Source of the DNA: a bacterium
GTDB lineage: Bacteria; Patescibacteriota; Minisyncoccia; Moranbacterales; UBA1568
NCBI GenBank assembly: GCA_021821305.1
Contig: JAKACP010000001.1
Coordinates: 330,453-394,452, forward strand
Length of the DNA stretch: 64,000 nucleotides
Reading direction: 5' to 3'
The notes below the pieces were generated by a model. It was not told the origin of the DNA and did no database searches. It worked only from the letters and a program-made list of their open reading frames with translations. The position numbers and the translations under genes are program-made. Positions 2,852-58,292 of this stretch are shown one piece after another (position 1 is the first letter of the stretch; every line of letters starts with the position of its first letter).

Positions 2852-3028
2852 ATGGCCGCAAAAAAGAAAGTCGCGAAGAAGAAAGTCGCGAAGAAGGCAG
2901 TGAAGAAGACCGTGAAGAAGGCTGTGAAGAAGGTCGCCAAGAAGGCGGTAAAGAAGACCGCGAAGAAGGCGGTAAAGAAGACCGCGAAGAAGGCTACCAA
3001 GAAAGCGACGAAGAAGGGTAAGAAATAG
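2852..3028 (+). CDS. Small lysine-rich histone H1/Hc1-like DNA-binding protein (AKKAVKK repeats), 58 aa
   Basis: Strong SD AAAGGAGGTG 7 nt upstream of the ATG; KKAVKKT repeat protein; absent from the ORF track because it is <60 aa; the minus-strand ORF 2794-3000 is its mirror image. Confidence 0.6.
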   Translation: MAAKKKVAKKKVAKKAVKKTVKKAVKKVAKKAVKKTAKKAVKKTAKKATKKATKKGKK

Positions 3029-8270: not shown

Positions 8271-8342
8271 GCCACCTTAGCTCAGTGGTAGAGCAGCGGT
8301 TTTGTAAACCGTTGGTCCTCGGTTCAAATCCGAGAGGTGGCT
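8271..8342 (+). tRNA. tRNA-Thr(TGT)
   Basis: Cloverleaf; anticodon loop TTTGTAA; acceptor GCCACCT/AGGTGGC. Confidence 0.8.
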
Positions 8343-8440
8343 CATGGAAGGGGATGGAAACATCGGAAGGTGCAACGGTCGTATTCCGCTTGTCGGAATC
8401 CCTCGTTCTCGTTCCGAGATTTGCATCCGCAGGTCTCCGT

Positions 8441-8524
8441 GGGCAGGTGGCGGAGCGGTCAATCGCAGCAGACTGTAAATCTGTCGCCCTACGGGCTACG
8501 GGGGTTCGAATCCCTCCCTGCCCA
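8441..8524 (+). tRNA. tRNA-Tyr(GTA), long variable arm
   Basis: Acceptor GGGCAGG/CCTGCCC; anticodon loop CTGTAAA; T-loop TTCGAAT. Confidence 0.85.
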
Positions 8525-8600
8525 CAGAAGCCGTTTTTGATGTCGCAAGCGTGGCAATGGAGTCGGTTTTATGAAGAAGGAGGGAGGGATGAGAAGTTTA

Positions 8601-8637
8601 TGCCCCGCAGGGGTAAATCCCTCCCTGCCCACAGAAA

Positions 8638-8643
<6 letters not shown>
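8601..8643 (+). repeat. Duplicate of the tRNA-Tyr 3' end (AATCCCTCCCTGCCCACAGAA) preceded by hairpin GCCCCGCAGGGGT; att-like scar
   Basis: 21-27 bp direct repeat of 8509-8535, placed 80 bp downstream of tRNA-Tyr. Confidence 0.6.
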
Positions 8644-8710
<67 letters not shown>

Positions 8711-8770
8711 CAATATTGACGGAATGCGCTTTTTTCCGTACAGTAGGTACATTATCTTTTTTGAATCGGT

Positions 8771-8932
8771 ATGGGGAAGATCAAGGACAACATGGCGAAA
8801 ATGAAGTGCTCCGAGTGTGGACGCATCACGACGTATACGAAGCGGAATAAGAAGAAAGTGAAAGAGAAGCTTTCCCTCCAGAAGTACTGCAATTTCTGCA
8901 GGAAACACACCACGCACAACGAGAGCAAATAG
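8771..8932 (+). CDS. rpmG: Ribosomal protein L33 (alternative start 8792)
   Basis: Two CxxC pairs (CSEC, CNFC) and the KYC..C.KHT.H.E.K signature; <60 aa so absent from the ORF track. Confidence 0.75.
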   Translation: MGKIKDNMAKMKCSECGRITTYTKRNKKKVKEKLSLQKYCNFCRKHTTHNESK

Positions 8933-8950
8933 GCTCTCGTTGCGGGTTTC

Positions 8951-9021
8951 GGGAGTGTCGTATAGTGGCAGTACAACGGTCTCCAAAACCGTTTGCGTAG
9001 GTTCGATTCCTACCACTCCTG
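8951..9021 (+). tRNA. tRNA-Trp(CCA)
   Basis: Anticodon loop CTCCAAA; acceptor GGGAGTG/CACTCCT (G1-U72). Confidence 0.75.
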
Positions 9022-9042
9022 CTGAAGGCAACGCCGAATCAT

Positions 9043-9114
9043 GGCCCTATCGTCTAGCGGCTAGGACATCTCCCTCTCACGGAGGAAACAGGGGTTCGAT
9101 TCCCCTTAGGGCTA
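9043..9114 (+). tRNA. tRNA-Glu(CTC)
   Basis: Glu-type D-arm TCGTCTAGCGGCTAGGAC; anticodon loop CTCTCAC; acceptor GGCCCTA/TAGGGCT (G1-U72). Confidence 0.7.
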
Positions 9115-12428: not shown

Positions 12429-12457
12429 TTGACAAAATACGGGATGTTGCGTACAAT
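12429..12457 (+). promoter_or_regulatory. Consensus promoter TTGACA-N17-TACAAT with a ~155 nt leader upstream of infA
   Basis: Seen in sequence. Confidence 0.55.
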
Positions 12458-13442: not shown

Positions 13443-13901
13443 ATGGCAGATGAAGTGAAAAAAGAGGAGTCCCTGACGACGGAGCCTACCGGCGCCGATC
13501 AGGCCGTCGCCGAGGCCGAGGCGACCAAGAAGCGCGGCAAGAAGAGCAAGCGTCAGGTTTTCCGTGGCCGGGCGAGCATCCAGTGCACGTATAACAACAC
13601 GATCGTGACGCTCACGGACCAGAACGGCGCCGTGCTCGGATGGTCGAGCTCCGGACATCTCGGTTTCAAGGGAGCCAAGAAGTCCACTCCGTACGCCGCG
13701 ACCCAGGTCGTCGCCAACGTGACGGAGAAGGTCAGGAAGTACGGTCTCCAGGAACTCGATGTCTTCGTACGTGGCGTCGGTAGCGGTCGCGAGGCTTCCG
13801 TCCGCGCGCTCGCGAACAACGGATTTTCCCTCCTCTCGATCAAGGACATCACGTCCATTCCCCATAACGGTTGCCGCCCGAAGCGGCCGAGAAGGATCTA
13901 A
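13443..13901 (+). CDS. rpsK: Ribosomal protein S11
   Basis: Full-length S11 similarity with an N-terminal Lys/Ala-rich extension. Confidence 0.9.
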   Translation: MADEVKKEESLTTEPTGADQAVAEAEATKKRGKKSKRQVFRGRASIQCTYNNTIVTLTDQNGAVLGWSSSGHLGFKGAKKSTPYAATQVVANVTEKVRKYGLQELDVFVRGVGSGREASVRALANNGFSLLSIKDITSIPHNGCRPKRPRRI

Positions 13902-14543: not shown

Positions 14544-14606
14544 TTAAATCGCAAGGAGGGATGTCCCGACGCCGGAAACGCCCGTCGGAACATCTGAAGC
14601 AAACCT

Positions 14607-15368
14607 ATGATTTCCGTCCCGCAACAGCCCAAGGTCACTTCTCTCGGAGAGAACCACTCGAAGTTCGAGATACTCGGATGCTATCCGGGTTATGGCGCGA
14701 CGCTCGGCAACGCCATCCGGCGCGTGCTCCTTTCCTCGCTCGACGGTGCCGCGGCGCAGTCGGTCAAGATCAAGGGCGTTTCGCACGAATTCGCCACGAT
14801 TCCCGGCGTCATGGAGGATGTCGTGCAGCTCCTGCTCAACCTCAAGCAGATCCGCTTCCGCATGCACGGTGATGAGACCGTCAAGGTGACGATCAAGGCC
14901 AAGGGAGAAGGCGAGGTCACCGCGGGCGATATCAAGGCCCCGTCGTCGGTGGAAATCGTGAACCCCGCGTACAAGATCGCGACGCTTACCGACAAGAAGG
15001 CCGAACTCGAGCTGGAGCTCGAAATCGGAAAGGGAATCGGATACGTTCCGATCGAGGCTCGTGACGGTGAGGACCGGGAGATCGGCGTCATCGCGCTCGA
15101 CTCGATCTACACGCCGGTCCGTCGCGTGAACTACGAGGTCGAGAACATGCGTGTCGGCAAGCGGACGGATTATGACAAGGTCTCGATCGAGGTGGTCACC
15201 GACGGAAGCATCACCCCGGAAACGGCATTCGCCAAATCGATAGATATCCTCGTCGGCCAGTTCGAATCCATCCGGATGGAACAGCCGAAGGAAGAGGCAG
15301 CGGCGGAAGAGAAGCCGAAGAAGGCCGCCAAGAAGGCCGCCAAGAAAGCCGAAAAGGAAGAGGCATAA
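14607..15368 (+). CDS. rpoA: DNA-directed RNA polymerase alpha subunit, N-terminal domain only, with a KKAAKK tail (no alpha-CTD)
   Basis: Alpha-NTD similarity over ~225 aa, then a 28-aa E/K/A-rich tail and stop; rplQ follows 6-21 nt later, leaving no room for a CTD. Confidence 0.85.
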   Translation: MISVPQQPKVTSLGENHSKFEILGCYPGYGATLGNAIRRVLLSSLDGAAAQSVKIKGVSHEFATIPGVMEDVVQLLLNLKQIRFRMHGDETVKVTIKAKGEGEVTAGDIKAPSSVEIVNPAYKIATLTDKKAELELELEIGKGIGYVPIEARDGEDREIGVIALDSIYTPVRRVNYEVENMRVGKRTDYDKVSIEVVTDGSITPETAFAKSIDILVGQFESIRMEQPKEEAAAEEKPKKAAKKAAKKAEKEEA

Positions 15369-15389: not shown

Positions 15390-15758
15390 ATGAATCACCG
15401 GAAAACAGGGCGAATATTGTCGAGAACCCGGAATCAGCGCCGGGCGCTTCTGAAGACGTTGTTCGGGAGCCTTATTCTCCATGAGCACATCCAGACCACG
15501 GAGGCCAAGGCCAAGGAAGTGAAGCTCCATATCGACCAGCTCGTGAACAAGGCCAAGCGCGCCCAGACGGACGAGGTCCGGAAGATCAGCCTGATCCGCG
15601 ATCTGCGCAGGAAACTCCCGCTCGTCGCGGTGGAGAAGCTCTCTTCGCCGGAGTTCATTTCCCGATTCTCGGGACGTGGCAGCGGGTATACCCGTGTCGT
15701 GAAGCTGCAGGCACGGAAAGGCGACGGCGCCCACATGGCCATCATTGAATTTGTCTAG
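15390..15758 (+). CDS. rplQ: Ribosomal protein L17
   Basis: MNHRKTGR start typical of L17. Confidence 0.85.
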   Translation: MNHRKTGRILSRTRNQRRALLKTLFGSLILHEHIQTTEAKAKEVKLHIDQLVNKAKRAQTDEVRKISLIRDLRRKLPLVAVEKLSSPEFISRFSGRGSGYTRVVKLQARKGDGAHMAIIEFV

Positions 15759-21839: not shown

Positions 21840-21868
21840 TTGACAGCTTCCCGCAGGCCCCCTATACT
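21840..21868 (+). promoter_or_regulatory. Candidate rRNA promoter TTGACA-N17-TATACT ~190 bp upstream of 16S
   Basis: Seen in sequence. Confidence 0.5.
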
Positions 21869-22057
21869 TGTTAGGCAGTCTGAAGGAAGTACTGCTTCTT
21901 TTTTACTGTATTCCGCACATTTACAATCGATGGAGAAATCACAATTTTTTGTGGTTGGTCCTAAATTTCTTTGAGAAGGGTCATAGTCATCTTTGTAGGG
22001 TTTCCTTCGGGAAGCTCTACTCGGGGAAAACCTGTCTTCGGATAGATTTTCCTCTTT

Positions 22058-23549
<1,492 letters not shown>

Positions 23550-26444: not shown

Positions 26445-26520
26445 GGGGTGACTAGAGGGAATCGAACCCTCATTCATGGTACCACAAACCATTGTCCTGC
26501 CATTGAACGATAGTCACCCC
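26445..26520 (-). tRNA. tRNA-His(GTG) with encoded G-1
   Basis: Anticodon loop TTGTGGT; extra 5' G pairing with discriminator C73. Confidence 0.7.
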
Positions 26521-26554
26521 TTCACTCGCTTCTTTTCGGAGTACTGCTTCCTTG

Positions 26555-26626
26555 TGCCCTCGGCAGGAATCGAACCTGCATCAAGGGCTTAGAAGACCCC
26601 TGCTCTATCCATTGAGCTACAAGGGC
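26555..26626 (-). tRNA. tRNA-Arg(TCT)
   Basis: Acceptor GCCCTTG/CGAGGGC; anticodon loop CTTCTAA. Confidence 0.8.
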
Positions 26627-26634
26627 AAACCGGG

Positions 26635-26707
26635 TGGGTCGTGGAGGATTCGAACCTCCGACCGTTGGCTTAAGAGGCCACTGCTCTACCAACTGAGCTA
26701 ACGACCC
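26635..26707 (-). tRNA. tRNA-Lys(CTT)
   Basis: Acceptor GGGTCGT/ACGACCC; anticodon loop CTCTTAA. Confidence 0.8.
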
Positions 26708-26910
26708 GAAACGCAAAAAAAAACGATGTCCCAGGAAAGACTTCTCACAAGATACCGTAAAAGCAGGGCTCTGTCAAACGCCGAAAATCCTGTTGACGCG
26801 GGCTCTCTTTCACGGTACAACGTATGAGTGGCTCGCCGATCATTCGGCTGAAAAACGCTCCTGTGGTGAAATGCCTGCTTGTCGGCAGACAGGGATATCA
26901 CAAGGGTGAT

Positions 26911-26982
26911 GCCCCGATAGCTCAACGGATAGAGTACCGGTCTTCGGAACCGAGGATGGGGGTTCGATTCCCTCTCGGGGCA
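26911..26982 (+). tRNA. tRNA-Arg(TCG)
   Basis: Acceptor GCCCCGA/TCGGGGC; anticodon loop CTTCGGA. Confidence 0.7.
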
Positions 26983-43199: not shown

Positions 43200-43325
43200 G
43201 TTTCGGAACCGGGTTCGCAGACACATGGAAGGTTCGGTATTTCATACCCAGCCTTCCTTTTTATTAGTATGCGAAGCGAGCTCGTGGGTAGAAAACGGCA
43301 CGCTTGATTTGAACAAAGGGAAATG

Positions 43326-44930
43326 CTAGCATCGGTTAGGCATCAAGGAAAGGTGGGTGAGCGGCTGAAACCAGCACACTGCTAACGTGCCAGGGGGTAA
43401 AACCCCTCGAGGGTTCGAATCCCTCCCTTTCCGCCAAAATTGGAAGTCTGCATTGGAACCCGAAATGGGGTCGCGCCGAAGGCGCGACACTAATGCATTC
43501 CCCCCAAAAAATTCTGAATCTGAAAGGGTTTTCCACGCTCCGCGTGGCTCAAAAAGTACGGTTCGATCCTTAATTAAAAAGTTCGAACCGACTTTTTTGA
43601 ACAAATGAGTATTTTCCTCATTTGTTCGGTCGTTTGCCAATTCCATATTGTATTTCAAAAACTTTTCGGTAAGTTCGAACCGATTATTCGCTTTTTGTTC
43701 AAAAGCCGATAATTTCTCTTTGAGAAGCTGTTTTGCGGCAACCAGAGCATTTTTAGCATCACGATATTCTTCTAGTGAAAGTGCGCTCTCCAAATACGCC
43801 GTCATCAGCTTCTCAATTTTGATTTCTAAAAGAGAAATATCGGTTTTCAAGTTATCGGCAAAAAGCGTACTCGATTGGATTTCGGATGATTGGTCTTTTC
43901 TGTTTTCTTCAATCATCCAAGAAAGCCAATCGAGGGGCAAAGAAACTTTTTTGATTTCTTCTTGAATTTGAAAAGTGATGAGCTCCTCGCGGACATACTT
44001 CTGCTCACAAGGATTTTTCCGTTTGGTACATCGCAAATAGTTATGACCTTTTTGTTGCTCGGTGGTAATGAAGCAACCACATTCTCCGCAACGGAAAAAT
44101 CCTCTGTACAAATAATCCTTTAGCCCGCGAGATTTCGGTTTTGACTTTCGGCTCATCACTTCTTGAACGGAATCAAAAAGTTTCTTTGTGATAATTGGTT
44201 CATGCTTTCCCTCAAAAATCTCGCCATTGTAAAGCATTAAACCTGTGTAAATAGGATTTTTGAGAAGTTTTTGATAATTCGACACCGCAAGTTCCTTTCC
44301 GCTTTTTCGCTTCAATCCAAGTGCGTTAAATTTGTCGCGGAGTTCTCGCAAAGTGAAAGACCCAGACGAATATGCCTCAAATGTTTTCTTAATTAAGGGT
44401 GCGATATTTTCATCAACAACAATTTTTCCACCCTTGTTTATATATCCCAACGGAGACATTTGAGGCCATATTCCGTCTTTCACTTTGTTTCTCTTTCCAC
44501 GCTTGATATTTTCCGACAAATTATCGACATAATACTTGGATTGCGAAAAAGCGATTGAGAGCATGAACTTGCCTTGCGGTGTCGGATCAAACCAAAAAGT
44601 TGGGAATTTCATTTCAGAAATTACCCCGGTATCAACGAGGTAGATTATTTTTCCTCCATCTACCGAGTTGCGAGCAAGTCTATCAGGATGCCACGCCAAA
44701 ATACCAGTAGCTTCGCCCGCTTCCATTCTCGCTATCATTTCATTAAACACAGGGCGACCTGGTATTTTGGCGGTCTGCTTTTCGACAAAGACATCTACCA
44801 CTTCCAATTGTTCTTTCAACGCGAGTTCCTTTAATTCACTTAACTGGTCGGCAATACTGCGGACTTGTCTGTCTTTGTCGTCCGTAGACTTGCGAGTATA
44901 GATGAAAAACTTTTTGGTTTGATTATTCAT
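43326..44930 (-). CDS. Large serine recombinase (resolvase domain, recombinase domain, Zn ribbon); the C-terminal ~68 codons read through IR-A and antisense to tRNA-Ser
   Basis: N-terminal YTRKSTDDKDRQVRSIADQ with catalytic Ser; recombinase domain; CGECGC zinc ribbon; the functional C-terminus probably ends near residue ~465. Confidence 0.8.
   Translation of the reverse strand: MNNQTKKFFIYTRKSTDDKDRQVRSIADQLSELKELALKEQLEVVDVFVEKQTAKIPGRPVFNEMIARMEAGEATGILAWHPDRLARNSVDGGKIIYLVDTGVISEMKFPTFWFDPTPQGKFMLSIAFSQSKYYVDNLSENIKRGKRNKVKDGIWPQMSPLGYINKGGKIVVDENIAPLIKKTFEAYSSGSFTLRELRDKFNALGLKRKSGKELAVSNYQKLLKNPIYTGLMLYNGEIFEGKHEPIITKKLFDSVQEVMSRKSKPKSRGLKDYLYRGFFRCGECGCFITTEQQKGHNYLRCTKRKNPCEQKYVREELITFQIQEEIKKVSLPLDWLSWMIEENRKDQSSEIQSSTLFADNLKTDISLLEIKIEKLMTAYLESALSLEEYRDAKNALVAAKQLLKEKLSAFEQKANNRFELTEKFLKYNMELANDRTNEENTHLFKKVGSNFLIKDRTVLFEPRGAWKTLSDSEFFGGNALVSRLRRDPISGSNADFQFWRKGRDSNPRGVLPPGTLAVCWFQPLTHLSLMPNRC
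43347..43436 (+). tRNA. tRNA-Ser(GCT), CCA encoded
   Basis: Acceptor GGAAAGG/CCTTTCC; long variable arm; anticodon loop CTGCTAA. Confidence 0.8.
43431..43550. repeat. IR-A left arm (120 bp), perfect inverted repeat of 44952-45071
   Basis: Sequence comparison; includes CCGCCA from the tRNA-Ser 3' terminus. Confidence 0.8.
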
Positions 44931-44951
44931 AGAATTGTATTGGCAAACGAC

Positions 44952-45071
44952 GAGCCACGCGGAGCGTGGAAAACCCTTTCAGATTCAGAATTTTTTGGGG
45001 GGAATGCATTAGTGTCGCGCCTTCGGCGCGACCCCATTTCGGGTTCCAATGCAGACTTCCAATTTTGGCGG
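44952..45071. repeat. IR-A right arm (120 bp)
   Basis: Reverse complement identical to 43431-43550. Confidence 0.8.
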
Positions 45072-45339
45072 TGTGTATTAGACAACGTTCGAATGTATTT
45101 TGAGCTAAATCCTGACGATGAGCCCTAATCGCACGCGCGGAGCGCGTGGTGACTTGAAACTGCATTGTACGCTCGGATTGCGTGGTGATGCGAACCAAAG
45201 CGCCTCGGACACGCTCGCGGACTCGCGTGTGCAAAGACCAAAAAATTTCCTTGCATTTTTCTCGCGTCTCCTCCCCCCACCCCTCCGCCGCGAAGCGGAA
45301 AAAGAAATGGAAAGGAAATTTTTGGTTTTGCTTCGCCGT
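45068..45339. repeat. IR-B left arm (~272 bp), near-perfect inverted repeat of 47478-47750
   Basis: Sequence comparison (2 differences). Confidence 0.8.
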
Positions 45340-45412
45340 AGTCATACCTATATTGTATTTTATCACACCATTGAGTCAAGACACAACATTGATTATACTC
45401 AAACTAACAAAT

Positions 45413-45619
45413 ATGTCTGATTCATCAAAAAAACTTGCCGTGAATATGAAAAAGATTAGGGCTCGTAAGCATATGTCGCAAGGCGACATATGCCGAGAGC
45501 TTGGCGTTGACCGCGCTTACATCAGCACGATTGAATCGGGGAAACAAAACCCTACACTTTTAACGATTGAAAGAATAGCCAAAGCTCTCGGCGTTTCGGT
45601 TGATGAGTTGTTGAAATGA
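45413..45619 (+). CDS. XRE-family HTH transcriptional regulator
   Basis: HTH_3-like motif (MSQGDICRELGVDRAYISTIESGK); low GC. Confidence 0.65.
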   Translation: MSDSSKKLAVNMKKIRARKHMSQGDICRELGVDRAYISTIESGKQNPTLLTIERIAKALGVSVDELLK

Positions 45620-45740
45620 TATAGAGCAAGACATTCTCAGAACCCACCGATGCTTTACACAGCGATTGAGAAAGTGAGGTGTGGATAACGAATCGTATGT
45701 GTGCTTGCATTATTATATACGAATATGCTAATATACGCAT

Positions 45741-46040
45741 ATGATAGATTTATGCAAAGAAATCGCCCGCATGGGTAGAGGTATCGGCAATGAAAACCGC
45801 TATCGTATTATTGAAACCCTCATGAAGGGCTCCCAAACAGTTGGTGATATTGCTGGGAAAGTCGGCATGCCACAACCGACCGTTTCTCAAAATCTTCGGG
45901 TTTTGAAAGAAGCGGATCTTGTCGTTGACGAACGACGCGGACAAGAAGTGTATTACACGATTAATGTTATGTATATGACAAAACTGCTCAAGCGTTTGGC
46001 CGATGACGTATCAAAGAGCGGTGGCAAAAAGCCACATTAA
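45741..46040 (+). CDS. ArsR/SmtB-family transcriptional regulator
   Basis: Winged HTH; YRIIETL...TVSQNLRVLKEADLV. Confidence 0.7.
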   Translation: MIDLCKEIARMGRGIGNENRYRIIETLMKGSQTVGDIAGKVGMPQPTVSQNLRVLKEADLVVDERRGQEVYYTINVMYMTKLLKRLADDVSKSGGKKPH

Positions 46041-46068
46041 CAATTAAACCAATATTAATCACATCACT

Positions 46069-46710
46069 ATGAAAACAATTATTGATTCTCTCAAGTGGCG
46101 CTATGCTACTTACACATTTGACACCAGTAAAGGAATTTCAGAAAAGGATTTGCATACCGTTCTCGAAGCGGGAAATTTAGCGGCTACCGCTTTCGGCTTA
46201 CAACCATTCGAGTTTGTGGTAGTTAAAGATCAGACCATGAAAGAGTCGCTAGTTCCGCACGCGTACGGACAACAGCATCTCGCAAAAAACTCTGCTTTGG
46301 TGGTACTAGCTATTCGTACTGATCTCGATGAAGCCTATATTACCGAGTACATTGAGCGTATCGGGCGTGTCCGTGGCGTTCCCGTGGAGATGCTTGAAGG
46401 TTTCAAGCAATCAATGCTCGGCGCAATGAGTATGAAAGGAGCTGATGGCAGGAATGCGTGGGCGCAAAAGCAAGCATACATTGCACTCGGCACCATGATG
46501 GCAGCTGCTTCAGAATTACGAATAGATAATCACGGTGCGGAAGGCTTTGACCCCGAGAAGTTCGATGAAATGCTCGGCCTTAAAGCAAAGAATCTTCACG
46601 CCACTGTACTTCTTATGCTCGGCTACCGTACTGATACACCAGATGACAAGGAGAAAATGTTCCAAATCAAGGTCCGCAAGGAGTATGACGATATCGTAAG
46701 TGTTATCTAG
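46069..46710 (+). CDS. NAD(P)H nitroreductase-family protein
   Basis: Nitroreductase fold similarity over the full length. Confidence 0.7.
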   Translation: MKTIIDSLKWRYATYTFDTSKGISEKDLHTVLEAGNLAATAFGLQPFEFVVVKDQTMKESLVPHAYGQQHLAKNSALVVLAIRTDLDEAYITEYIERIGRVRGVPVEMLEGFKQSMLGAMSMKGADGRNAWAQKQAYIALGTMMAAASELRIDNHGAEGFDPEKFDEMLGLKAKNLHATVLLMLGYRTDTPDDKEKMFQIKVRKEYDDIVSVI

Positions 46711-46731
46711 TTACTTACACGAAAACATTCT

Positions 46732-47115
46732 ATGAAAACTTTCTTCAAAACGCTTACGACACAGCAAAAGGTTGGCTATGTGCTCGCTACGCTTCTCTCG
46801 ATTCTTTTGCTTCTACCCGCGACCCTCAAAATCATAAGTTTCCCGATGTTCGTCGAACTCTTTACAGCACACAACATTGGCGAGTTTCTGACCGTTATCG
46901 GCCTTGGCCTCGCAGTTTCGAGTATTCTCTACGCGATACCTCGCACTAAAATGCTCGGCACCCTTCTTTTGTCAGCGTACTTCGGCGGCGCAATCGTCTT
47001 TCACATGACTGCTGACGAGCCGTTTATCATTCAGTCGGTTGTTCTTGTACTGATGTGGCTCTTTGCTTGGCTTCGTGATCCGAATGTATTTCTTCCAAAG
47101 TACTCAGATGAGTAA
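46732..47115 (+). CDS. DoxX-like membrane protein
   Basis: 127 aa, 4 TM helices, DoxX-like pattern. Confidence 0.45.
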   Translation: MKTFFKTLTTQQKVGYVLATLLSILLLLPATLKIISFPMFVELFTAHNIGEFLTVIGLGLAVSSILYAIPRTKMLGTLLLSAYFGGAIVFHMTADEPFIIQSVVLVLMWLFAWLRDPNVFLPKYSDE

Positions 47116-47477
47116 AGAGGTCTTTTTGAAGTTAAGGGAGCCAACCCCCGTCGTTTTATAATTTTCCTCAAAAACGGCGGGGGTTGTTGTGCGCGCACTG
47201 GGTGGGGCAAGCACATACAGATTTGTTTGTGCCTCAGCACAATCCATATTCCTTTGAATCACCACTAAACTCTCTCGAAGCCACCAAGCGAACACACACA
47301 ACACCGAAGCAGCCAGCGCGAGCGAATGCGAGCGGGCTATGCGAAGGCGGTTGTGTGTGGTTCGCGGACGTTAGAGTTACCACCAAACGCGGATACGGAT
47401 GCGCCTCGGTCGCCGTGAGGGTGGAGAAAAGAGCAATCAAAAGTGATAAACTAATAGTGCTTTTTTCGGAGACTGAA

Positions 47478-47750
47478 ACGGCGAAGCAAAACCAAAAATT
47501 TCCTTTCCATTTCTTTTTCCGCTTCGCGGTGGAGGGGGTGGGGGGAGGAGACGCGAGAAAAATGCAAGGAAATTTTTTGGTCTTTGCACACGCGAGTCCG
47601 CGAGCGTGTCCGAGGCGCTTTGGTTCGCATCACCACGCAATCCGAGCGTACAATGCAGTTTCAAGTCACCACGCGCTCCGCGCGTGCGATTAGGGCTCAT
47701 CGTCAGGATTTAGCTCAAAATACATTCGAACGTTGTCTAATACACACCGC
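47478..47750. repeat. IR-B right arm
   Basis: Reverse complement matches 45068-45339. Confidence 0.8.
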
Positions 47751-48211
47751 AGAAGTGAAAGAGGAGCCATTTTGTATGGCTCCTTTTTTGCTTCTATGAT
47801 GAACGCATTCGGAGTTTATGCCCCGAAGGGGTAAATCCCTCCCTTTCCGCATCAAGCTCATAGTATCGAGGGTGACCCGAGAGCCTCGAATGAGCAACAT
47901 AAAACCAAACCGCCGGTAAATGGCGGTTTTATTCTTTCTGATCTATAGATCTTCTTTACTGTATGATCCCTCTCTTTTGACTGTCACGGACAATCTTACT
48001 TTGGTCCCATAAGCTCGAGAAATTTCATGGGGTCTATCGAGAAACCGCCTATACGAACCGAGAGATGGAGGTGAGGGCCGAGAGAATAGCCCGTATTGCC
48101 GCTCTTGGCTACGGGGTCACCTTTTCCCACGTTGTCGCCCGCTTCTACACCGATTTCGGAAAGATGCATGTACATGGTCATGATACCCAATCCATGATCA
48201 ATGATGACGGT
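47747..48211. repeat. 465-bp direct repeat DR-1; includes the att-like copy of the tRNA-Ser 3' end, two terminator hairpins and the last 72 codons of an M23 peptidase gene. Identical to 60277-60741
   Basis: 100% identity at a constant offset of 12,530 bp. Confidence 0.85.
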
Positions 48212-48958
48212 ATTGCCGAAGTTTCTCAGGCTTTGGGCAAGGACCACCTTGCCGGAGTTCATGGCATATACCGACGTTCCCTCCGCTGCTCGAAAATCCG
48301 TGCCTTGATGGCTGAGACTTACGGATCCAGTCTGCCTCTTGTAGCCATAAGTATCGGTAACGGTAAGAGATCCATCAAGCGGTAAGCGGAACTCTCCGCT
48401 CCAGAGTCGTTCCGGGCCTATGATGGTGGTGACAGAGTTGAGGATAGCCGCGTCCCGTGACAAAGTGCTGGTAAGCTCGTGCTCCGCTTGGGGAGTATTG
48501 CCGCCAAGTTGCTCCGGGATGTCGAATTCTTCCGTAGCGACAACCCTTTGGCCGATCTCAAACTCCTCTTCGATTTTCCGGCCGTCCTTGAGGGTGAGGA
48601 CGATCGGATACGAACCGGGCTTTTTATGGAAATCGATTCCTACAAGTGCGGCAACCTTACCCTCATCAGCAAACACGGCAAGCGGCTTGCCATCAAGAGC
48701 AAGCGACTCGATGTTCGAGATATCGCTGATGCCGTCCAGGGTAATCCGCGCGGGCTCTCCCTGGATGAGAGCAGTGGGGAAAACGGAAAGCGATACCGGT
48801 TCCACGGCGGAAACAATGCCGGGTTTTTCTGCCTCCATGGCTTGTGATTCGGATTCTGCTTCAGGCTGGTCTTTTAGCTGTGGCAAGGCAAAGTAGAGAG
48901 CGAGGAATAAGGCTGGTAAAGTGAGCCAAAGGAGTGTTCTCATCCCTGGATTGTACAC
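47996..48958 (-). CDS. M23-family (LytM-like) metallopeptidase, paralog 1, with N-terminal TM anchor
   Basis: HxxxD (IDHGLG) and GNTGYSLGPHLHLSV motifs. Confidence 0.75.
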   Translation of the reverse strand: MYNPGMRTLLWLTLPALFLALYFALPQLKDQPEAESESQAMEAEKPGIVSAVEPVSLSVFPTALIQGEPARITLDGISDISNIESLALDGKPLAVFADEGKVAALVGIDFHKKPGSYPIVLTLKDGRKIEEEFEIGQRVVATEEFDIPEQLGGNTPQAEHELTSTLSRDAAILNSVTTIIGPERLWSGEFRLPLDGSLTVTDTYGYKRQTGSVSLSHQGTDFRAAEGTSVYAMNSGKVVLAQSLRNFGNTVIIDHGLGIMTMYMHLSEIGVEAGDNVGKGDPVAKSGNTGYSLGPHLHLSVRIGGFSIDPMKFLELMGPK

Positions 48959-49056
48959 TTCTCTGGTGGAATCGTGAAGACCGGTACTGCTTGGTCATTT
49001 ACATCAGCTTTTCAGTTGATAGCTTCCGGAAATCGTGCTATCGTGTGAGGGCGCTT

Positions 49057-49476
49057 ATGTCCAAAATAAAGAAAACGTCTCTTTTCGTCTTCGTGCTGGC
49101 CGTGATGCTTTCCACCGGAAGCTCGTGCGCTTTCCCCATGCTTCCGGCCCAAGCTTCTTCGGGGGCGATGCAAATGGGTGATCAAAGCGCTTCAGGCGAG
49201 CAGAGTGAAATCATGGATGGATATGATATGGGGTCGATGGCGCATGCGCCTCTTCCCCAAGAGCATGTGAAAACATGTTCGGCGGACTGCGGGCAGACTG
49301 TCGATGACGCGGTTACGACAAAGAAAGACAAAGAACTTTTGGAGCTTCCTGCTCTTGTTTCACAAGGTATTTTCATGCCCCCGTCGCCTCTCGATGGATC
49401 GGATCTCGAGGCTTTTGAGCGGTCAGAAATCCCGCCTTTAGGGGATGCTCTCCTCACCGTTGCCAAAAAAGAATAG
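49057..49476 (+). CDS. Secreted Met/His-rich small protein (candidate periplasmic copper-binding protein)
   Basis: Signal peptide; MQMGDQ and MDGYDMGSMAH motifs; lies in the copper gene context. Confidence 0.35.
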   Translation: MSKIKKTSLFVFVLAVMLSTGSSCAFPMLPAQASSGAMQMGDQSASGEQSEIMDGYDMGSMAHAPLPQEHVKTCSADCGQTVDDAVTTKKDKELLELPALVSQGIFMPPSPLDGSDLEAFERSEIPPLGDALLTVAKKE

Positions 49477-49618
49477 ATTGATCGAAGTGTCAGAAAGCTG
49501 AGACATTTTATCCTTGTGGATAATACTCTCTCCTTCTGGCATTTTTTGTTTCCGTTTCTTCGTGAGAGAAATGGATTTTAGCAGTCGGATCAAATAGTTA
49601 AGTCTTACATACAACCTT

Positions 49619-51259
49619 ATGGACAAGAAGAAAATAATTGTGGCGATCATAGCCATAGTCATCCTCGGCGCTCTCGCCTGGTATGGGTCGGTCGATCGCC
49701 GGATGAGAGTCGGCACCTCTGAAGAGGGGACGGCGAACCTGAACGCTCCGCCATCCGGAGATATACGGCAGGCTGTTCCGTCGGAAATCGTCGATCTCAA
49801 GGACGGTCAATCGATCGACCTTGCCATCACACCCGTCAAGAAAACGATCGCCGGGCGTACGGTGAAGATGCTCGGATACAACGGCTCCATTCCCGGGCCC
49901 ACCCTCCGTGTTCCGGAGGGTTCGGAGATTACCGTCAACCTGAAGAACGGCGGTGATATCGCCACGTCGCTCCATGCCCATGGAGTGCGGATGGAAAACC
50001 CGTTCGATGGGGTGCCGGGCGTGACTCAAAAGGAGATCGCTCCAGGTGAATCGTTCGCCTACAAGCTCAAGTTCACCGATCCGGGTGTCTTCTGGTATCA
50101 CCCCCATGTGAGAACGGATTACGCGGTCGAGTCAGGGCTCTATGCGAACATCATCGTGACGCCGAAGGATAGCGGCTATTTCCCGCCCGCCAACCGCGAG
50201 GTGCCGCTCATACTCGACGATATAGCGCTCGACAAGGACGGGATGCTTCCGTTCGATGCCAAGGTTGCGGATCATACCCTTATGGGGCGCTTCGGCAATG
50301 TCATGCTCGTGAACGGCGAGACGGACTACAAACTCCAAGCGAAACAAGGCGAGGTGGTGCGTCTCTATCTCACCAATGCGGCCAACACGAGACTCTTCAA
50401 CTTCACTCTTCCCGGAGCGAAGATGAAGCTGGTCGGGGCGGATGTGGGACGCTATGAAAAGGAAACCTTCGTGGAGGGCGTGCTTGTTGCTTCCGGCGAG
50501 CGTCGTGTCGTGGATGTTCTCTTTGAAAAGGCCGGCGAGTACGCGATGAAGCACGAGACTCCTGACAAGGAGTATGCTCTCGGAACGGTGTCCGTTTCCG
50601 CTGAAACCATCAGCCTCTCCTATACCGAAGAGTTTTCAGCGTTGCGGACGAACGCGGCCGTCGTCGATGAGTTGGAAAATCTCATGAATACGTATCTTGC
50701 GAAGAGTCCGGACAAGATCCTGAATCTTTCACTCGATATGGATCAGGAGATGCGTCAGGGTATGCCTATGGGAATGCACTCGATGAACTCGATGGGTGGA
50801 GGCGGCATGGCCATGTCGGATGCGGATATGGGCATGGGCGATGACGGAGACGCGTTGGAATGGGAGGACACGATGGCCGGTATGAACGCCCAGTCCACAT
50901 CGGACATGCTGGAATGGAAGCTCGTGGACGGCATGACGGGCAAGGTGAACGCGGATATCGATGACTGGAACTTCCGGACGGGCGACAAGGTCAAGATCCG
51001 TATCTTCAATGATCCGAAATCCCTGCATCCCATGCAGCACCCGATTCACTTCCATGGACAGCGCCTCATGGTGCTCTCGACGAACGGCGTGAAGAATGAC
51101 AACCCGGCATGGGTCGATACGGCGTTGGTAGCCACAGGCGACACGGTCGACATCCTGCTTGACGCCTCCAATCCCGGCACGTGGGTCGCACATTGTCATA
51201 TCCTGGAGCATGCGGAAAGCGGCATGATGCTCTCATACACCGTGGGAAAGACCGACTAA
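49619..51259 (+). CDS. Multicopper oxidase (CueO/laccase-like) with a Met-rich insert
   Basis: Cu-binding motifs LHAHG, WYHPH and HCHILEHAESGMM; Met-rich segment MRQGMPMGMHSMNSMGGGGMAM. Confidence 0.8.
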   Translation: MDKKKIIVAIIAIVILGALAWYGSVDRRMRVGTSEEGTANLNAPPSGDIRQAVPSEIVDLKDGQSIDLAITPVKKTIAGRTVKMLGYNGSIPGPTLRVPEGSEITVNLKNGGDIATSLHAHGVRMENPFDGVPGVTQKEIAPGESFAYKLKFTDPGVFWYHPHVRTDYAVESGLYANIIVTPKDSGYFPPANREVPLILDDIALDKDGMLPFDAKVADHTLMGRFGNVMLVNGETDYKLQAKQGEVVRLYLTNAANTRLFNFTLPGAKMKLVGADVGRYEKETFVEGVLVASGERRVVDVLFEKAGEYAMKHETPDKEYALGTVSVSAETISLSYTEEFSALRTNAAVVDELENLMNTYLAKSPDKILNLSLDMDQEMRQGMPMGMHSMNSMGGGGMAMSDADMGMGDDGDALEWEDTMAGMNAQSTSDMLEWKLVDGMTGKVNADIDDWNFRTGDKVKIRIFNDPKSLHPMQHPIHFHGQRLMVLSTNGVKNDNPAWVDTALVATGDTVDILLDASNPGTWVAHCHILEHAESGMMLSYTVGKTD

Positions 51260-51290
51260 GCAAATATTCAAATCGATAACGGAGAATCCT

Positions 51291-52121
51291 ATGCAAGATG
51301 AACACAGGCAGGAAAAAGACGAAGCCGGAGATCCGGTAGAGACTCGGGGAAAAGAAGGGGCGTCGGGTCGGGAGACGTGGATCATCGCCGGGGCGATCCT
51401 CTTGGGGAGCCTCATCGTCAGCGGGGGCATACTCTTCTCCCGTGGGACCTTTCAGAAAACATCCGATTCAGGCGCGACTGGAATACTGCAGCCGTCAGAA
51501 AATCCCTCGCCGATCGCGGAGCGGCCGGAGAGGCGGCCCGGCGAATCGGTGAAGGTCTCGACGGATGATGATGCCGTTTTGGGAGACAAGGATGCGCCGA
51601 TCACGCTGATCGAGTTTTCGGACTATGAGTGTCCATTCTGTAAACGCTCGTTCACTGATGTGCTTCCGGAGCTCAAGAAAACATATATCGACACAGGAAA
51701 AGTGAAACTCGTCTTCCGGGATTTCCCCCTGTCCTTCCATGCGAACGCCGGGAAGGAGGCGGAGGCGGCCGAGTGTGCGAGGAGCCTTGGGGATGATGTG
51801 ACGTACTACAAATTCCATGACCAGATCTTCACCAAAACCACTTCGAACGGGACTGGTTTGGCTCTTACGGAATTGCCTGCGATTGCGAAAAACCTTGGTC
51901 TCAACGTGAATCAGTTTCAGCAGTGTTTGGATTCGGGAAAGTTCAAAGACGAAGTAGCCAAGGATATGGCCGACGGGGAGGCGGCCGGTATTTCCGGTAC
52001 GCCATCATGGATTATCGGTGCTTCCAGCAAGGATGGCCAGATTGAGGGGCAGCTTGTCGTGGGAGCCCAGCCTTTCTCCGCGTTCAAGGCTATTATCGAT
52101 GAAAAACTCGGTAACAAGTAA
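51291..52121 (+). CDS. DsbA-family thiol:disulfide oxidoreductase, membrane-anchored
   Basis: CPFC active site in a thioredoxin fold. Confidence 0.7.
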   Translation: MQDEHRQEKDEAGDPVETRGKEGASGRETWIIAGAILLGSLIVSGGILFSRGTFQKTSDSGATGILQPSENPSPIAERPERRPGESVKVSTDDDAVLGDKDAPITLIEFSDYECPFCKRSFTDVLPELKKTYIDTGKVKLVFRDFPLSFHANAGKEAEAAECARSLGDDVTYYKFHDQIFTKTTSNGTGLALTELPAIAKNLGLNVNQFQQCLDSGKFKDEVAKDMADGEAAGISGTPSWIIGASSKDGQIEGQLVVGAQPFSAFKAIIDEKLGNK

Positions 52122-52127
52122 AAGATT

Positions 52128-52631
52128 ATGAGTAAGAAACAGCGAAAAATACCTTCCGCGGCCTGGTGGACTATCGGGTTAACTGTTGTCGTTATCGGGC
52201 TGATCGTGTTCCTTGGAGCAAGGTACTCCGGTCCTTCGAAAACCAATCGAGAGGTGGCTTTGTCGTGTACTACTGATATGGCTACCCGATTCCATATTCA
52301 TCCCAGCCTGGAGATTCGCATCAACGGCGAGAAACAGGTTATTCCTACGAATATCGGAGTCGATGCCAACTGCATGAATGCGCTCCATACCCACGGAACG
52401 AGCGGTGAAATCCATGTCGAGTCGCCGCAAAAACGAGACTTCACCCTTTCCGATTTCTTTGCGGTATGGGGCAAAACATACAGCAAAGATCAGATCCTCG
52501 ATTCCAAGGCTGATGAGAAATACATCATTCGCGAAACCGTAAACGGCCAAGAGGTGGGGGATTACGAAAATACCATCTTGCATGATAAGGACAAGATCGT
52601 TATTTTCTACGAGGAGAGAAATAAGGAGTGA
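52128..52631 (+). CDS. Hypothetical membrane-anchored His-rich protein
   Basis: ORF with TM anchor; HIHP...HTHGTSGEIH. Confidence 0.35.
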   Translation: MSKKQRKIPSAAWWTIGLTVVVIGLIVFLGARYSGPSKTNREVALSCTTDMATRFHIHPSLEIRINGEKQVIPTNIGVDANCMNALHTHGTSGEIHVESPQKRDFTLSDFFAVWGKTYSKDQILDSKADEKYIIRETVNGQEVGDYENTILHDKDKIVIFYEERNKE

Positions 52632-52667
52632 TGCCGCGGATCCGGTCAATGACGAAGGCTACAAGAT

Positions 52668-53213
52668 ATGAAAAACATCTGGTCTCCAAAAACCATTCTT
52701 CCCGCAGTCATGATCGCGGCGCTCTATGTCGTGGTAACCGTGTACCTCATGAATGCGGGGCTGGTGATGGATGCGATGTTCGGAACCCATTCGGCCGGAT
52801 ATAGGCAGAGTATCCTCATCGCGTTGCTTACGGGCATGTGGACGGCCATGAGCGCGCCCAGTCTGTTCCTCCTTGTCGTCGTCGCGATGCTTACCGGACT
52901 CAATCTCATGTTTGTCCTGGAGCGGCTCCGGACGGTCCGGTCTTCCGGGAAGATGCATCTGGCGGTAGGCGGGAGCTCCCTTCTTGGGATAGTGGGGAGC
53001 GGCTGTGCGAGTTGTGGACTGCCGATACTGGCCTTCCTGGGTCTCGGCGGCGCAGCCGCCTCCCTGCCCTTTCGGGGCATGGAGCTTTCCATCCTGACCG
53101 TCGCACTCCTTTCCGTATCCTTGTATATCCTGGTGAAAGGACGCGAACGGCAGGCGGTCTGTGCCGTCGGGACCATGGAATACCAGGATCGACACGTCGT
53201 CATTCCGGAATGA
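52668..53213 (+). CDS. Polytopic membrane protein with a CxxC motif (GSGCASCGLP)
   Basis: ORF with ~5 TM helices. Confidence 0.35.
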   Translation: MKNIWSPKTILPAVMIAALYVVVTVYLMNAGLVMDAMFGTHSAGYRQSILIALLTGMWTAMSAPSLFLLVVVAMLTGLNLMFVLERLRTVRSSGKMHLAVGGSSLLGIVGSGCASCGLPILAFLGLGGAAASLPFRGMELSILTVALLSVSLYILVKGRERQAVCAVGTMEYQDRHVVIPE

Positions 53214-53284
53214 TCTCCGACAGGCATGGAGATGAACGGGGGCAGAAGAATCGAAGTCCAAGAGAAAAGATCTTACCTCATAAC

Positions 53285-53677
53285 ATGAAGAATATGGAAT
53301 ACGGATACAAGCGCAGCGTATCGTTCCCTTTCGCCGATGCGGTCCTGAAGACGAAGGCGGAGCTCTCGAAGGAGGGATTCGGTGTCCTTACCGAGATCGA
53401 TGTGAAGGCGGCATTCAAGGAAAAACTCGGCGTGGAGCATGATGAGTATCTCATTCTCGGCGCATGCAACCCGAAGCTTGCCCAAAGAGCGCTCCAGGCG
53501 GAAAAGGGAATCGGCCTCTTCCTGCCTTGCAATGTCATCGTGTACAGGGAGGAAGGAGAGACAGTGGTCGCGACGATCCTCCCCGCCGCGGCAATGAGCG
53601 TGATCGGGAACCCGGCTTTGGACGAAGTCGCACGGGAAGCGGAGGAGAAACTGAAGAGGGCCGTCGATGCGGTCTGA
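53285..53677 (+). CDS. DUF302-domain protein
   Basis: Full-length DUF302 similarity. Confidence 0.55.
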   Translation: MKNMEYGYKRSVSFPFADAVLKTKAELSKEGFGVLTEIDVKAAFKEKLGVEHDEYLILGACNPKLAQRALQAEKGIGLFLPCNVIVYREEGETVVATILPAAAMSVIGNPALDEVAREAEEKLKRAVDAV

Positions 53678-53691
53678 CTATACGGAATGAT

Positions 53692-54402
53692 ATGGAATAC
53701 ATCTGGTTCATCTGGAGTCTGATATCGGTCGGCATCTGGCTGGCTATCTATCTTTCCCTGGACACGAGGGAGAAAAAGAAAGAAATGCTCATCGTCAGCC
53801 TGTGGACATCGCTCCTGGGCCTCACCGAACCGATTTTCGTTCCTGAATACTGGTCTCCTCCTTCGCTCTTCGATCTGGCCATGAAAACCGGGTTCGATAT
53901 CGAGAGTCTTGTTTTCTCTTTCGCTATCGGCGGCATAGCCGTGAGTCTGTATGAGCGGATCCTGCCGATCCGACATGTTTCCCTCTCAGCCGCAGAACAG
54001 CGCTCCGCCCGTCACGGATTTCATATCTGGGCGCTTCTTTCGGCGCCGGCGGTTTTTATCGTCCTGCTCCTCGCAGCCGATCTGAACCCGATTTACTCGG
54101 CGGTTGTCGCCATGGTTACCGGTGGACTGGCCACGTGGTATTGCCGGCCGGATCTCAAGAAGAAGATGTTCACGAGCGCTTTCATATTTCTTGCCCTCTA
54201 TTTCCTCTATTTTTTCACGCTTATCGCCATGTCGCCGGGCTATGTAGGACAGGTCTGGAATCTCCTGGCGATTTCAGGGATTCTGATCCTTGGTATTCCG
54301 CTCGAGGAGCTCTTGTTCGCGTGGAGTTTCGGGTTCATCTGGTCGAGCGTTTATGAACATGTCACATGGCGAAAATTTAACCAGAGCGCAAATTTATCTT
54401 AA
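53692..54402 (+). CDS. Membrane protein with lycopene-cyclase-domain-like PxEE motifs
   Basis: LTEPIFVPEYW and GIPLEELLFAW repeats. Confidence 0.35.
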   Translation: MEYIWFIWSLISVGIWLAIYLSLDTREKKKEMLIVSLWTSLLGLTEPIFVPEYWSPPSLFDLAMKTGFDIESLVFSFAIGGIAVSLYERILPIRHVSLSAAEQRSARHGFHIWALLSAPAVFIVLLLAADLNPIYSAVVAMVTGGLATWYCRPDLKKKMFTSAFIFLALYFLYFFTLIAMSPGYVGQVWNLLAISGILILGIPLEELLFAWSFGFIWSSVYEHVTWRKFNQSANLS

Positions 54403-54461
54403 GTCTTGTCATGGTATCATTGTATCTTGAGGTTATAAGTATCACCGATTACTAAAATAAT

Positions 54462-55403
54462 ATGTATGAAAAACCACAGGCACAATCTTCTTCTCTCGGA
54501 TCACATACGCCCTCTTTGACAGGCGCTAGGGACGCGCGCGCTCTCAAGATTGCCGGGTGGCTGACCGGAGTATACTTTGTCTTTGAGCTTGGTGTTGGCC
54601 TGTGGACAGGCTCAGTGTCTGTTACTTCTGACGCATTTCATACGTTCTCTGCCGTTGGCGGGGTATTGATTGCGGTCGTGGCGAGCGCCTATGCCAAGCG
54701 AGCGGCAACACCGGTTCAGACATTCGGACTTATACGAGCTGAGGTTGTCGGAGCTTTGTTGAATGGATTATTCCTCTTCGGCATGGCGGGATTTGTTCTT
54801 TGGATGGGGATCATGCGCCTACAAAATCCCATCGATCTTTCAGCGGGTACCATGTTCTTGGTAGCTATCGGAGGCCTTATAACTGAGATAATTTCCATGC
54901 GTCTGATGTGGGCGGGGCAAAAGGAGAACCTGAATATGAAGGGAGCCTTCTGGCATATCATTCAAACATTTGTCGGTAGCATTATCATTATTGTTTCGGC
55001 GCTCGTCATACAATTTACGGGATTTCTCCAAATCGATCCACTCCTTGGTATGGCATTTGGACTCGTATTGTTTTGGGCATCGTGGAAAATTATAAGAGAG
55101 GCTCTGCACATACTTTTAGATAACGTGCCAAAGGGCCTTGATCTCCATGATGTGAAAACTGTCATCGAAAAGATACCGGGGGTAGAAAACATCCATCATT
55201 TGCATGCGTGGGCTTTAACAAGCGGGAAAAATATCGTATCTGCTCACGTACGAATTACGGACATGGCGGAAGGCGTTCGTATTCAGAGGCAGATATACGC
55301 AATACTCACCAACGACTTCAACGTATATTTTTCTACAATACAAGTTGAAACCGAATGTTTAGAGCAAGAGACAGCGCAGGAGATAGATTTTTTAGGTAGG
55401 TAG
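54462..55403 (+). CDS. Cation diffusion facilitator (CzcD-like) metal efflux transporter
   Basis: 6 TM helices plus cytoplasmic domain; CDF signature; low-GC block begins here. Confidence 0.8.
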   Translation: MYEKPQAQSSSLGSHTPSLTGARDARALKIAGWLTGVYFVFELGVGLWTGSVSVTSDAFHTFSAVGGVLIAVVASAYAKRAATPVQTFGLIRAEVVGALLNGLFLFGMAGFVLWMGIMRLQNPIDLSAGTMFLVAIGGLITEIISMRLMWAGQKENLNMKGAFWHIIQTFVGSIIIIVSALVIQFTGFLQIDPLLGMAFGLVLFWASWKIIREALHILLDNVPKGLDLHDVKTVIEKIPGVENIHHLHAWALTSGKNIVSAHVRITDMAEGVRIQRQIYAILTNDFNVYFSTIQVETECLEQETAQEIDFLGR

Positions 55404-55447
55404 CAGATCACGATGATCACTAACCCGATAATAAACGGAACAAGACT

Positions 55448-57649: not shown

Positions 57650-57662
57650 CTAGGACAGTGCT

Positions 57663-58250: not shown

Positions 58251-58292
58251 GAAGCCCCCTATCATTTTTGCCTGTATTCAAGGAGCTTCTAA

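Follow-up and report, generated by a model that had tools for sequence, protein, structure and literature searches.

A naturally truncated RNA polymerase alpha subunit in Moranbacteria, ending in a conserved lysine cluster that may contact upstream DNA

A 64-kb stretch of DNA (hereafter, the window) from a Moranbacteria genome of ~826 kb codes for an RNA polymerase (RNAP) alpha subunit that ends shortly after its N-terminal domain (NTD). The rpoA gene (positions 14607..15368, + strand) specifies 253 residues, and we consider it almost certain that the alpha C-terminal domain (CTD) is truly and heritably absent from the RpoA of this lineage. The NTD is followed by a short tail, predicted to be intrinsically disordered, that carries a cluster of Lys residues. 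On balance, we favor a reading in which the deletion of the CTD is genuine and the Lys cluster provides a tethered, mostly non-specific contact with upstream DNA. The alpha-CTD is usually treated as a universal part of bacterial RNAP; it is the domain by which UP elements are read and the one that many activators chiefly contact.

A preliminary description, made from the sequence alone, had recognized an alpha-NTD in this 253-residue open reading frame (ORF), and domain searches bore this out. A Pfam scan at E ≤ 0.1 matched PF01000 at residues 53 to 169 (118.5 bits) and PF01193 at residues 27 to 218 (70.4 bits), both above their cut-offs, and returned no match to PF03118, the alpha-CTD family. 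The TIGR02027 rpoA profile exceeded its cut-off of 227.8 with a score of 259.1 bits; positions 2 to 231 of its 298 were covered, and the last ~67 positions, those of the CTD, were missing from the match. Solved bacterial alpha subunits align to the window RpoA over their N-terminal ~220 to 245 residues with E values of 1e-50 to 1e-60; for Escherichia coli alpha, residues 15 to 248 align to residues 9 to 238, and the alignment ends at the linker. The structure alignments and an AlphaFold2 model based on 56 homologues delimit an NTD, the platform for dimerization and β/β′ assembly, at residues 1 to 222 (14607..15272, +), which is folded with mostly high predicted local distance difference test (pLDDT) scores up to residue ~222. 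As the NTD is intact, the subunit should still dimerize and scaffold β and β′. The operon order is normal, infA-rpmJ-rpsM-rpsK-rpsD-rpoA-rplQ-rplM-rpsI, with the genes for S13, S11 and S4 upstream of rpoA and those for L17, L13 and S9 downstream. The rpoA start at 14607 is preceded only by a weak purine-rich stretch; a perfect AAGGAGG (14553-14563, +), with an out-of-frame ATG one base on, is found farther upstream, 47 nt from this start.

There is no room for a CTD at this locus. The start of rplQ (L17, PF01196) is TTG 15375 or ATG 15390, 6 or 21 nt past the rpoA stop as already noted in the preliminary description, the latter start being the gene call (15390..15758, +) on an identical public contig, L001. 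In 43 of 43 CTD-less relatives, rplQ begins 18 to 58 nt after the rpoA stop. A frameshift near the 3′ end of rpoA had been raised as a way in which a CTD might be restored; because there is no DNA between rpoA and rplQ to encode one, it cannot be. The identical 253-residue protein (P0001) was found on NCBI, ENA and Logan contigs, one of them 826 kb long. Its 120 closest homologues (64 to 100% identity, 234 to 290 residues, the named ones being Candidatus Moranbacteria or Moraniibacteriota) all share the CTD-less architecture: PF03118 is absent from all 120 in precomputed Pfam lists, and a local CTD hidden Markov model (HMM) built from 85 CTD-bearing representatives likewise matched none. A frameshift or assembly artefact was therefore rejected, as independent assemblies hold the same protein, 21 nt separate it from rplQ and its homologues are built alike.

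The possibility of a separately encoded CTD, also raised at the outset, was addressed by scans that covered the window and related loci. The local HMM found no CTD in the six frames of the 64-kb window, and a six-frame scan of the window plus 81 loci, ~1.3 Mb in all, found CTDs nowhere except at rpoA 3′ ends. A Moranbacteria CTD profile run against a database of 5.8 billion proteins returned 57 short PF03118 proteins, of which we inspected the five on contigs of at least about 8.4 kb. Two (L084 and L085) proved to be contig-end fragments; the other three (L082, L083 and L086) are CTD pieces of split or frameshifted rpoA genes, located between an NTD ORF and rplQ. All five thus sit at the rpoA locus, in lineages that bear the CTD, and a free-standing CTD gene was found neither in the window, nor in the ~1.3 Mb of related loci, nor among these inspected proteins. 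Two of the metagenome contigs, both from CPR bacteria (Candidate Phyla Radiation), show distinct two-ORF arrangements: in L086 (2348-3300) a 218-residue NTD ORF overlaps a 99-residue CTD ORF by 4 nt, and in L082 (3182-4153) a 227-residue NTD ORF is followed, after a gap of 135 nt, by a 50-residue CTD ORF. Either sequencing frameshifts or a true splitting of the gene, perhaps as a step towards CTD loss, could account for them.

An NTD alignment was used to retrieve 80 species-representative Moranbacteria-type loci from GTDB. The CTD is fused to rpoA in 38 of them (ORFs of ~320 to 340 residues) and missing in 42, one of which is cut by a contig end; together with the window and the identical contig L001, the latter make up a CTD-less set of 44. 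In a neighbor-joining tree built from the NTDs of this single protein, the window RpoA groups with a large CTD-less set whose members all bear a Lys cluster. Bootstrap support is 48% for the whole group and 99% for its core (window, L002 to L007, L011 and L017). A second CTD-less clade (L064, L066, L069, L079 and L080; bootstrap 99%) and the single locus L052 have short or acidic tails, of 9 to 25 acidic residues or almost none. The distribution indicates a secondary loss within Moranbacteria that occurred once at the least and probably twice or more. The mean AT fraction of the loci is 0.50 in the CTD-less Lys-tail clade versus 0.59 in CTD-bearing Moranbacteria.

Beyond this group, 85 of the 150 best representatives at 50% identity have a CTD, and about 40 to 45, counted after removal of obvious frameshift junk and fragments, are CTD-less and scattered among CTD-bearing lineages; the few named ones belong to the "Patescibacteria group" or "Parcubacteria group." A metagenome scan scored 20 further loci as CTD-less with a Lys cluster. 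Nineteen are credible; the other, L113, is doubtful, being a 72%-GC contig whose RpoA has an Arg-rich tail of 221 residues.

The tail that follows the NTD comprises 28 to 31 residues rich in Lys, Ala and Glu and ends in ...EEKPKKAAKKAAKKAEKEEA, followed by a TAA stop codon, in agreement with the ~28-residue K/A/E-rich tail of the preliminary description. AlphaFold2 gives pLDDT values below 50 for residues 227 to 253, consistent with disorder. Three segments can be distinguished. The first, RMEQPKEEAAAEE (residues 223 to 235; 15273..15311, +), aligns to the interdomain linker of full-length alpha subunits and represents an acidic remnant of it. The second is the Lys cluster KPKKAAKKAAKKAEK (residues 236 to 250; 15312..15356, +), recognized by its conservation in homologues; it consists of three KKxx units, that is, tandem Lys-rich repeats with Ala, Pro, Val or Thr spacers as found in H1-like tails. 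The third is a short acidic end, EEA, before the stop (15357..15368, +). The same layout holds across 117 homologues, in which a linker of 6 to 41 residues, variable in sequence and with a mean charge of -5.8, leads to an 11-residue Lys window with a mean charge of +6.2 and the pattern KKxxKKxxKK, followed by 1 to 13 residues with a mean charge of -1.8. The strongly positive stretch is thus short, ~11 to 15 residues at about +6 with acidic flanks. Disorder and an acidic segment ahead of a basic motif, as judged from pLDDT and charge, match an HMGA-like layout; the RGRP core of AT-hooks is absent from the window RpoA tail. No Pfam family matched either this tail or a 58-residue KKxx protein encoded elsewhere in the window, so that KKxx tails are a class by composition and not a family by homology.

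Comparison with full-length relatives locates the cluster in the ancestral protein. E. coli RpoA resembles the window protein in its orthologous NTD (E value 1e-50), in its operon position and in post-NTD residues that align to the linker, but it continues into a helix-hairpin-helix CTD (PF03118), whereas the window RpoA ends ~30 residues after the NTD. The alpha-CTD binds the A/T-tract UP element (PMC12641261). The CTD-bearing RpoA proteins of Moranbacteria (e.g. L042, L046 and P0122; 320 to 328 residues) have an NTD 57 to 69% identical to that of the window RpoA, lie in the same operon and share with it an acidic linker rich in Glu, Val and Ala, which in a CTD-bearing protein reads, for example, GGIEIVEE...EAVDPLKIKVTELK. 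They differ by a well-conserved helix-hairpin-helix CTD (DPLKIKVTELKNLSTRTLNVLE...GMGDKGIKEIKK). With a cluster defined as at least 5 Lys or Arg per 11 residues, it is found in 36 of 42 CTD-less tails versus 5 of 38 CTD-bearing linkers in Moranbacteria (P = 4.5e-11 by a Fisher test that is uncorrected for phylogeny). Its commonness in the former and rarity in the latter indicate that the Lys cluster arose no earlier than the loss of the CTD; it occupies the position from which the CTD formerly started.

Several features argue that the cluster is probably under selection. Among 56 homologues, Lys243 is invariant and Lys242 and Lys247 are at least 90% conserved, and no position in the rest of the tail has a majority residue. 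The motif KK-x(0-3)-KK occurs in 111 of 120 tails. The maximum number of Lys and Arg per 11 residues averages 6.72, compared with 4.59 after shuffling, and the excess reaches P ≤ 0.05 in 70% of the tails. Finally, the distance of the cluster from the C terminus is steady (6.7 ± 3 residues) while the length of the linker drifts.

Other CTD-less lineages of the Candidate Phyla Radiation (CPR) point in the same direction. Among the 120 closest relatives of P0243, a CTD-less RpoA of Parcubacteria, 43 have a long acidic linker with a single perfect AT-hook, (P)KK(K)RGRPKK, at the end; 40 have Lys-cluster ends, 22 have acidic or very short tails, and 15 have a CTD. In 33 aligned AT-hook RpoA proteins with NTDs 45 to 59% identical, K-R-G-R-(P)-x-K is invariant, in a set that was selected by the motif and is to that extent circular. 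The single motifs scored below threshold with the Pfam AT_hook model (12.5 and 11.9 bits versus a cut-off of 17.4). The operon context was checked for two of the AT-hook rpoA genes and reads S13-S11-S4-rpoA-L17; a metagenome scan for AT-hook loci yielded one new locus among 80. Separate CTD-less lineages have thus placed a known or plausible DNA-binding motif at the end of the old linker. It is mainly this parallel that supports the view of the window Lys cluster as a tether-borne contact with DNA.

These observations lead us to propose the following arrangement. After residue ~222, the polypeptide would run through the old acidic linker to a Lys cluster at the former start of the CTD and finish with a short acidic end. 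The cluster would touch the phosphate backbone or the minor groove upstream of the -35 element, mostly without sequence specificity, and such a tethered contact would retain part of the grip on upstream DNA that is normally supplied by two CTDs. With the CTD, both the site at which class I activators dock and the capacity to read UP elements are gone. DNA binding by the cluster and its effect on initiation are inferred from comparative sequence data. We put upstream promoter DNA forward only tentatively as the target, and rank this reading above those of a neutral remnant and of a partner other than DNA. On the wider scale, it is conceivable, if rather speculative, that across much of the CPR repeated losses of the CTD left in its stead a minimal disordered module on the core enzyme, an acidic tether that ends in a single AT-hook or a Lys cluster.

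Known regulators offer precedents for both the layout and the proposed action. Myxococcus xanthus CarD carries an unfolded acidic segment followed by RGRP AT-hooks on an RNAP-binding module, and the title of a study cited in the same article refers to a histone H1-like Lys-rich region in other myxobacterial CarD (PMC4374960). The HMGA-like domain of CarD has the acidic-then-basic layout of the CPR alpha tails with one AT-hook or a Lys cluster. However, CarD is a separate β-binding factor with four AT-hooks in ~140 residues, whereas the CPR alpha subunits bear a single short motif on a core subunit, and where CarD has RGRP the window RpoA has a Lys version. In WhiB7 of Actinobacteria, a C-terminal AT-hook held on the holoenzyme occupies the minor groove at an AT-rich promoter motif adjacent to the -35 element (PMC10243135), and we propose that CPR alpha subunits use their AT-hook tails in this way. 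In contrast, WhiB7 is a sigma-bound Fe-S regulator that works at specific AT-rich promoters, and the window RpoA has no RGRP and its promoters no AT-rich tract.

Other observations weigh against the proposed DNA contact. Residues 223 to 253 contain 9 Lys and 1 Arg versus 8 Glu, a net charge of only +2, and the mean net charge of whole tails across the clade is -1.45, so that the acidic residues flanking the Lys cluster might neutralize it. The "basic appendix" of the preliminary description is thus correct for one +6 Lys patch but misleading for the tail as a whole, which is an acidic tether with a single such patch. The enrichment in CTD-less tails comes from a test uncorrected for phylogeny, and the Lys-tail clade as a whole has the low bootstrap value given above. 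The cluster is encoded by ~2.5 copies of the 12-nt unit AAGAAGGCCGCC, and slippage of such a repeat can generate Lys/Glu/Ala low complexity. Furthermore, tails without a basic motif exist in the second CTD-less clade of Moranbacteria, in L052 and in the ~22 of 120 relatives of P0243, which shows that the basic motif is dispensable for life without a CTD.

The promoters likewise provide no obvious sequence target for the cluster, if it binds DNA here. The infA-rpoA operon is preceded by a sigma-70-type promoter identified from its sequence (TTGACA-17-TACAAT; 12429..12457, +), the -59..-38 region of which is GC-rich (32% AT). The near-consensus promoter of the 16S rRNA gene (TTGACA-17-TATACT; 21840-21868, +) has only 14% AT (86% GC) in the same interval, and 17 promoter-like sites of the window average 48% AT there, against 45% for the window. 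In nearly all 80 Moranbacteria loci the infA-operon promoter is conserved at a position ~175 to 210 nt ahead of infA, and a long conserved leader is thereby implied. AT enrichment of the -59..-38 region of this promoter relative to the locus is seen neither in CTD-bearing nor in CTD-less species (both -0.016 ± 0.02); since CTD-bearing species lack the enrichment equally, the comparison at this promoter cannot discriminate. At two AT-hook loci the picture is anecdotal (n = 2) and discordant, as L088 has a 95%-AT tract at -59..-38, ahead of a perfect promoter, and L087 has none. The proposal in the preliminary description that the tail is a nucleic acid-binding substitute for the CTD therefore has comparative support, from the conserved and enriched cluster and the AT-hook parallel, but the motif is dispensable and no AT-rich promoter target accompanies it.

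The tail might instead be a functionless disordered stub, its Lys/Ala/Glu run having arisen by harmless slippage of the 12-nt repeat. The repeats that encode the cluster, the predicted disorder, the existence of CTD-less relatives with 9 to 25 acidic residues or almost no tail, and the lack of a promoter signature for a DNA-reading module at the infA promoters and the 17 window sites would all be expected of a stub. We nevertheless consider this explanation unlikely: an invariant Lys243, with Lys242 and Lys247 nearly so, stands out in 56 sequences with otherwise unalignable linkers, the cluster keeps its place near the end while the linker varies from 6 to 41 residues, and it is found in 36 of 42 tails versus 5 of 38 linkers. 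Moreover, many CTD-less lineages, separate from one another, have basic ends, one of them a 9-residue AT-hook, which slippage is unable to make.

Alternatively, the cluster may be functional but serve another partner, be it RNA (nascent or regulatory), another RNAP subunit or a factor with an acidic surface, or its own acidic linker, in tuning solubility or condensation. The alternating charge pattern (-5.8/+6.2/-1.8) is one typically seen in disordered regions that interact with themselves or switch partners, the RNA-binding protein L31 of the window bears a similar extension, and no AT-rich upstream element was found at the infA promoters or the 17 window sites. Against this, sister lineages hold at the equivalent position an AT-hook, described as a DNA minor-groove binder, the domain that was replaced is itself a DNA minor-groove binder, and the nearby 58-residue protein made entirely of KKxx resembles a nucleoid protein. 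We judge a non-DNA partner to be decidedly improbable. Least probable by far, and already largely refuted, is that the CTD only seems lost, owing to an artefact or to a CTD encoded by a split gene or by another rpoA in the rest of the genome: the scan covers 64 kb of the ~826-kb genome and split rpoA genes do occur on L082 and L086, but the independent assemblies, the uniform absence of the CTD from the 120 homologues and the set of 44, the 21-nt gap (18 to 58 nt in the relatives), the six-frame scans and the rpoA location of the five short CTD proteins all contradict it.

Under the favored reading, of a genuine deletion with a tethered Lys contact, the window RpoA is a natural counterpart of known truncated alpha subunits. 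An E. coli alpha truncated in the laboratory (~residues 1 to 235; alpha-NTD crystal structure 1BDF) keeps the same part of the protein. Alpha chains of 229 to 242 residues, comprising only the NTD, occur in solved E. coli RNAP complexes. Igarashi and Ishihama reportedly found in 1991 that the C-terminal region of alpha is needed for the response to activators but not for core function. The laboratory truncation is engineered, whereas that of the window RpoA is natural, fixed in its clade and accompanied by a conserved Lys cluster.

A CTD is likewise absent from archaeal Rpo3 (D) and eukaryotic Rpb3/AC40, which share the PF01193/PF01000 assembly-platform fold with the window RpoA. An Rpo3/Rpb3-type origin was nevertheless rejected, as the significant NCBIfam and PDB matches are all to bacterial alpha subunits, the sole archaeal-type match being 16 bits to subunit L. 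The nearest relatives, at 57 to 69% identity, have a bacterial CTD, which also rules against this ancestry. Thus, Rpo3 and Rpb3 lack the CTD ancestrally, whereas the window RpoA lacks it by secondary loss inside a CTD-bearing group.

Whole CPR clades represent natural alpha-CTD deletions next to CTD-bearing sisters with NTDs only ~60 to 70% identical, a natural experiment on the need for this domain. One prediction is that CTD-dependent regulators are absent or rewired in CTD-less CPR bacteria. One paper notes that the CPR clade has no complete CRP/FNR-type proteins (PMC12531629), as would suit an RNAP that offers activators no classical docking site. The recurrent combination of an acidic tether with an AT-hook or a Lys cluster suggests a minimal and testable stand-in for a folded DNA-binding domain. 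If this is correct, upstream promoters would be contacted by a motif of ~10 residues and not by a folded domain, no dock for classical class I activators would exist, and transcription activation would follow another logic in a sizeable share of bacterial diversity. In practice, the use of domains as markers in CPR genomes should allow for the absence of PF03118. We found no published description of a CTD-less RpoA in CPR/Patescibacteria in a search that left most subscription journals out, and its novelty is to that extent unproven.

Lys extensions like that of RpoA are otherwise rare among the ~59 predicted genes of the window, being found on L31 and making up the whole of the 58-residue protein; the three proteins concerned bind or probably bind nucleic acids. 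The 58-residue ORF (2852-3028, +) is nearly all KKxx repeats (MAAKKKVAKKKVAKKAVKKTVKK...KKATKKGKK), with a coding-like GC content at third codon positions (GC3) and no Pfam family. From its sequence, it looks like a tiny histone H1-like nucleoid protein, as the preliminary description had it, and its repeat unit is that of the RpoA tail. L31 (5362-5655, -) matches PF01197 at residues 1 to 62 and continues into a Lys/Ala/Glu-rich C-terminal extension of ~35 residues, which upholds the Lys-rich tail reported for it. The one reported for S11 proved to be an N-terminal extension and not a tail: ~41 residues precede the Pfam domain (13443-13565, +), first acidic and then containing KKRGKKSKR.

The remainder of the window has several further features. 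A 16S rRNA gene lies at 22055-23548 (+), and the next protein-coding gene is at 23792; Rfam searches detected no 23S or 5S rRNA gene in the window, and the rRNA genes thus appear unlinked. A stretch of lower GC content extends over ~43300-61500, with 43 to 47% GC at 44 to 48 kb and 54 to 60 kb versus 55 to 60% elsewhere. It begins at a tRNA gene (43347-43433) that adjoins a large serine recombinase gene (43326-44930, -), and it carries genes for a heavy-metal P-type ATPase (55448-57649), a cation-efflux protein (54462-55403) and three paralogous M23 peptidases (47996-48958, 59080-60057 and 60526-61473, all -). This stretch looks like an integrated mobile island. Two tRNA clusters are located in an otherwise gene-dense region, six genes at 8271-9114 (+) and four at 26447-26982.

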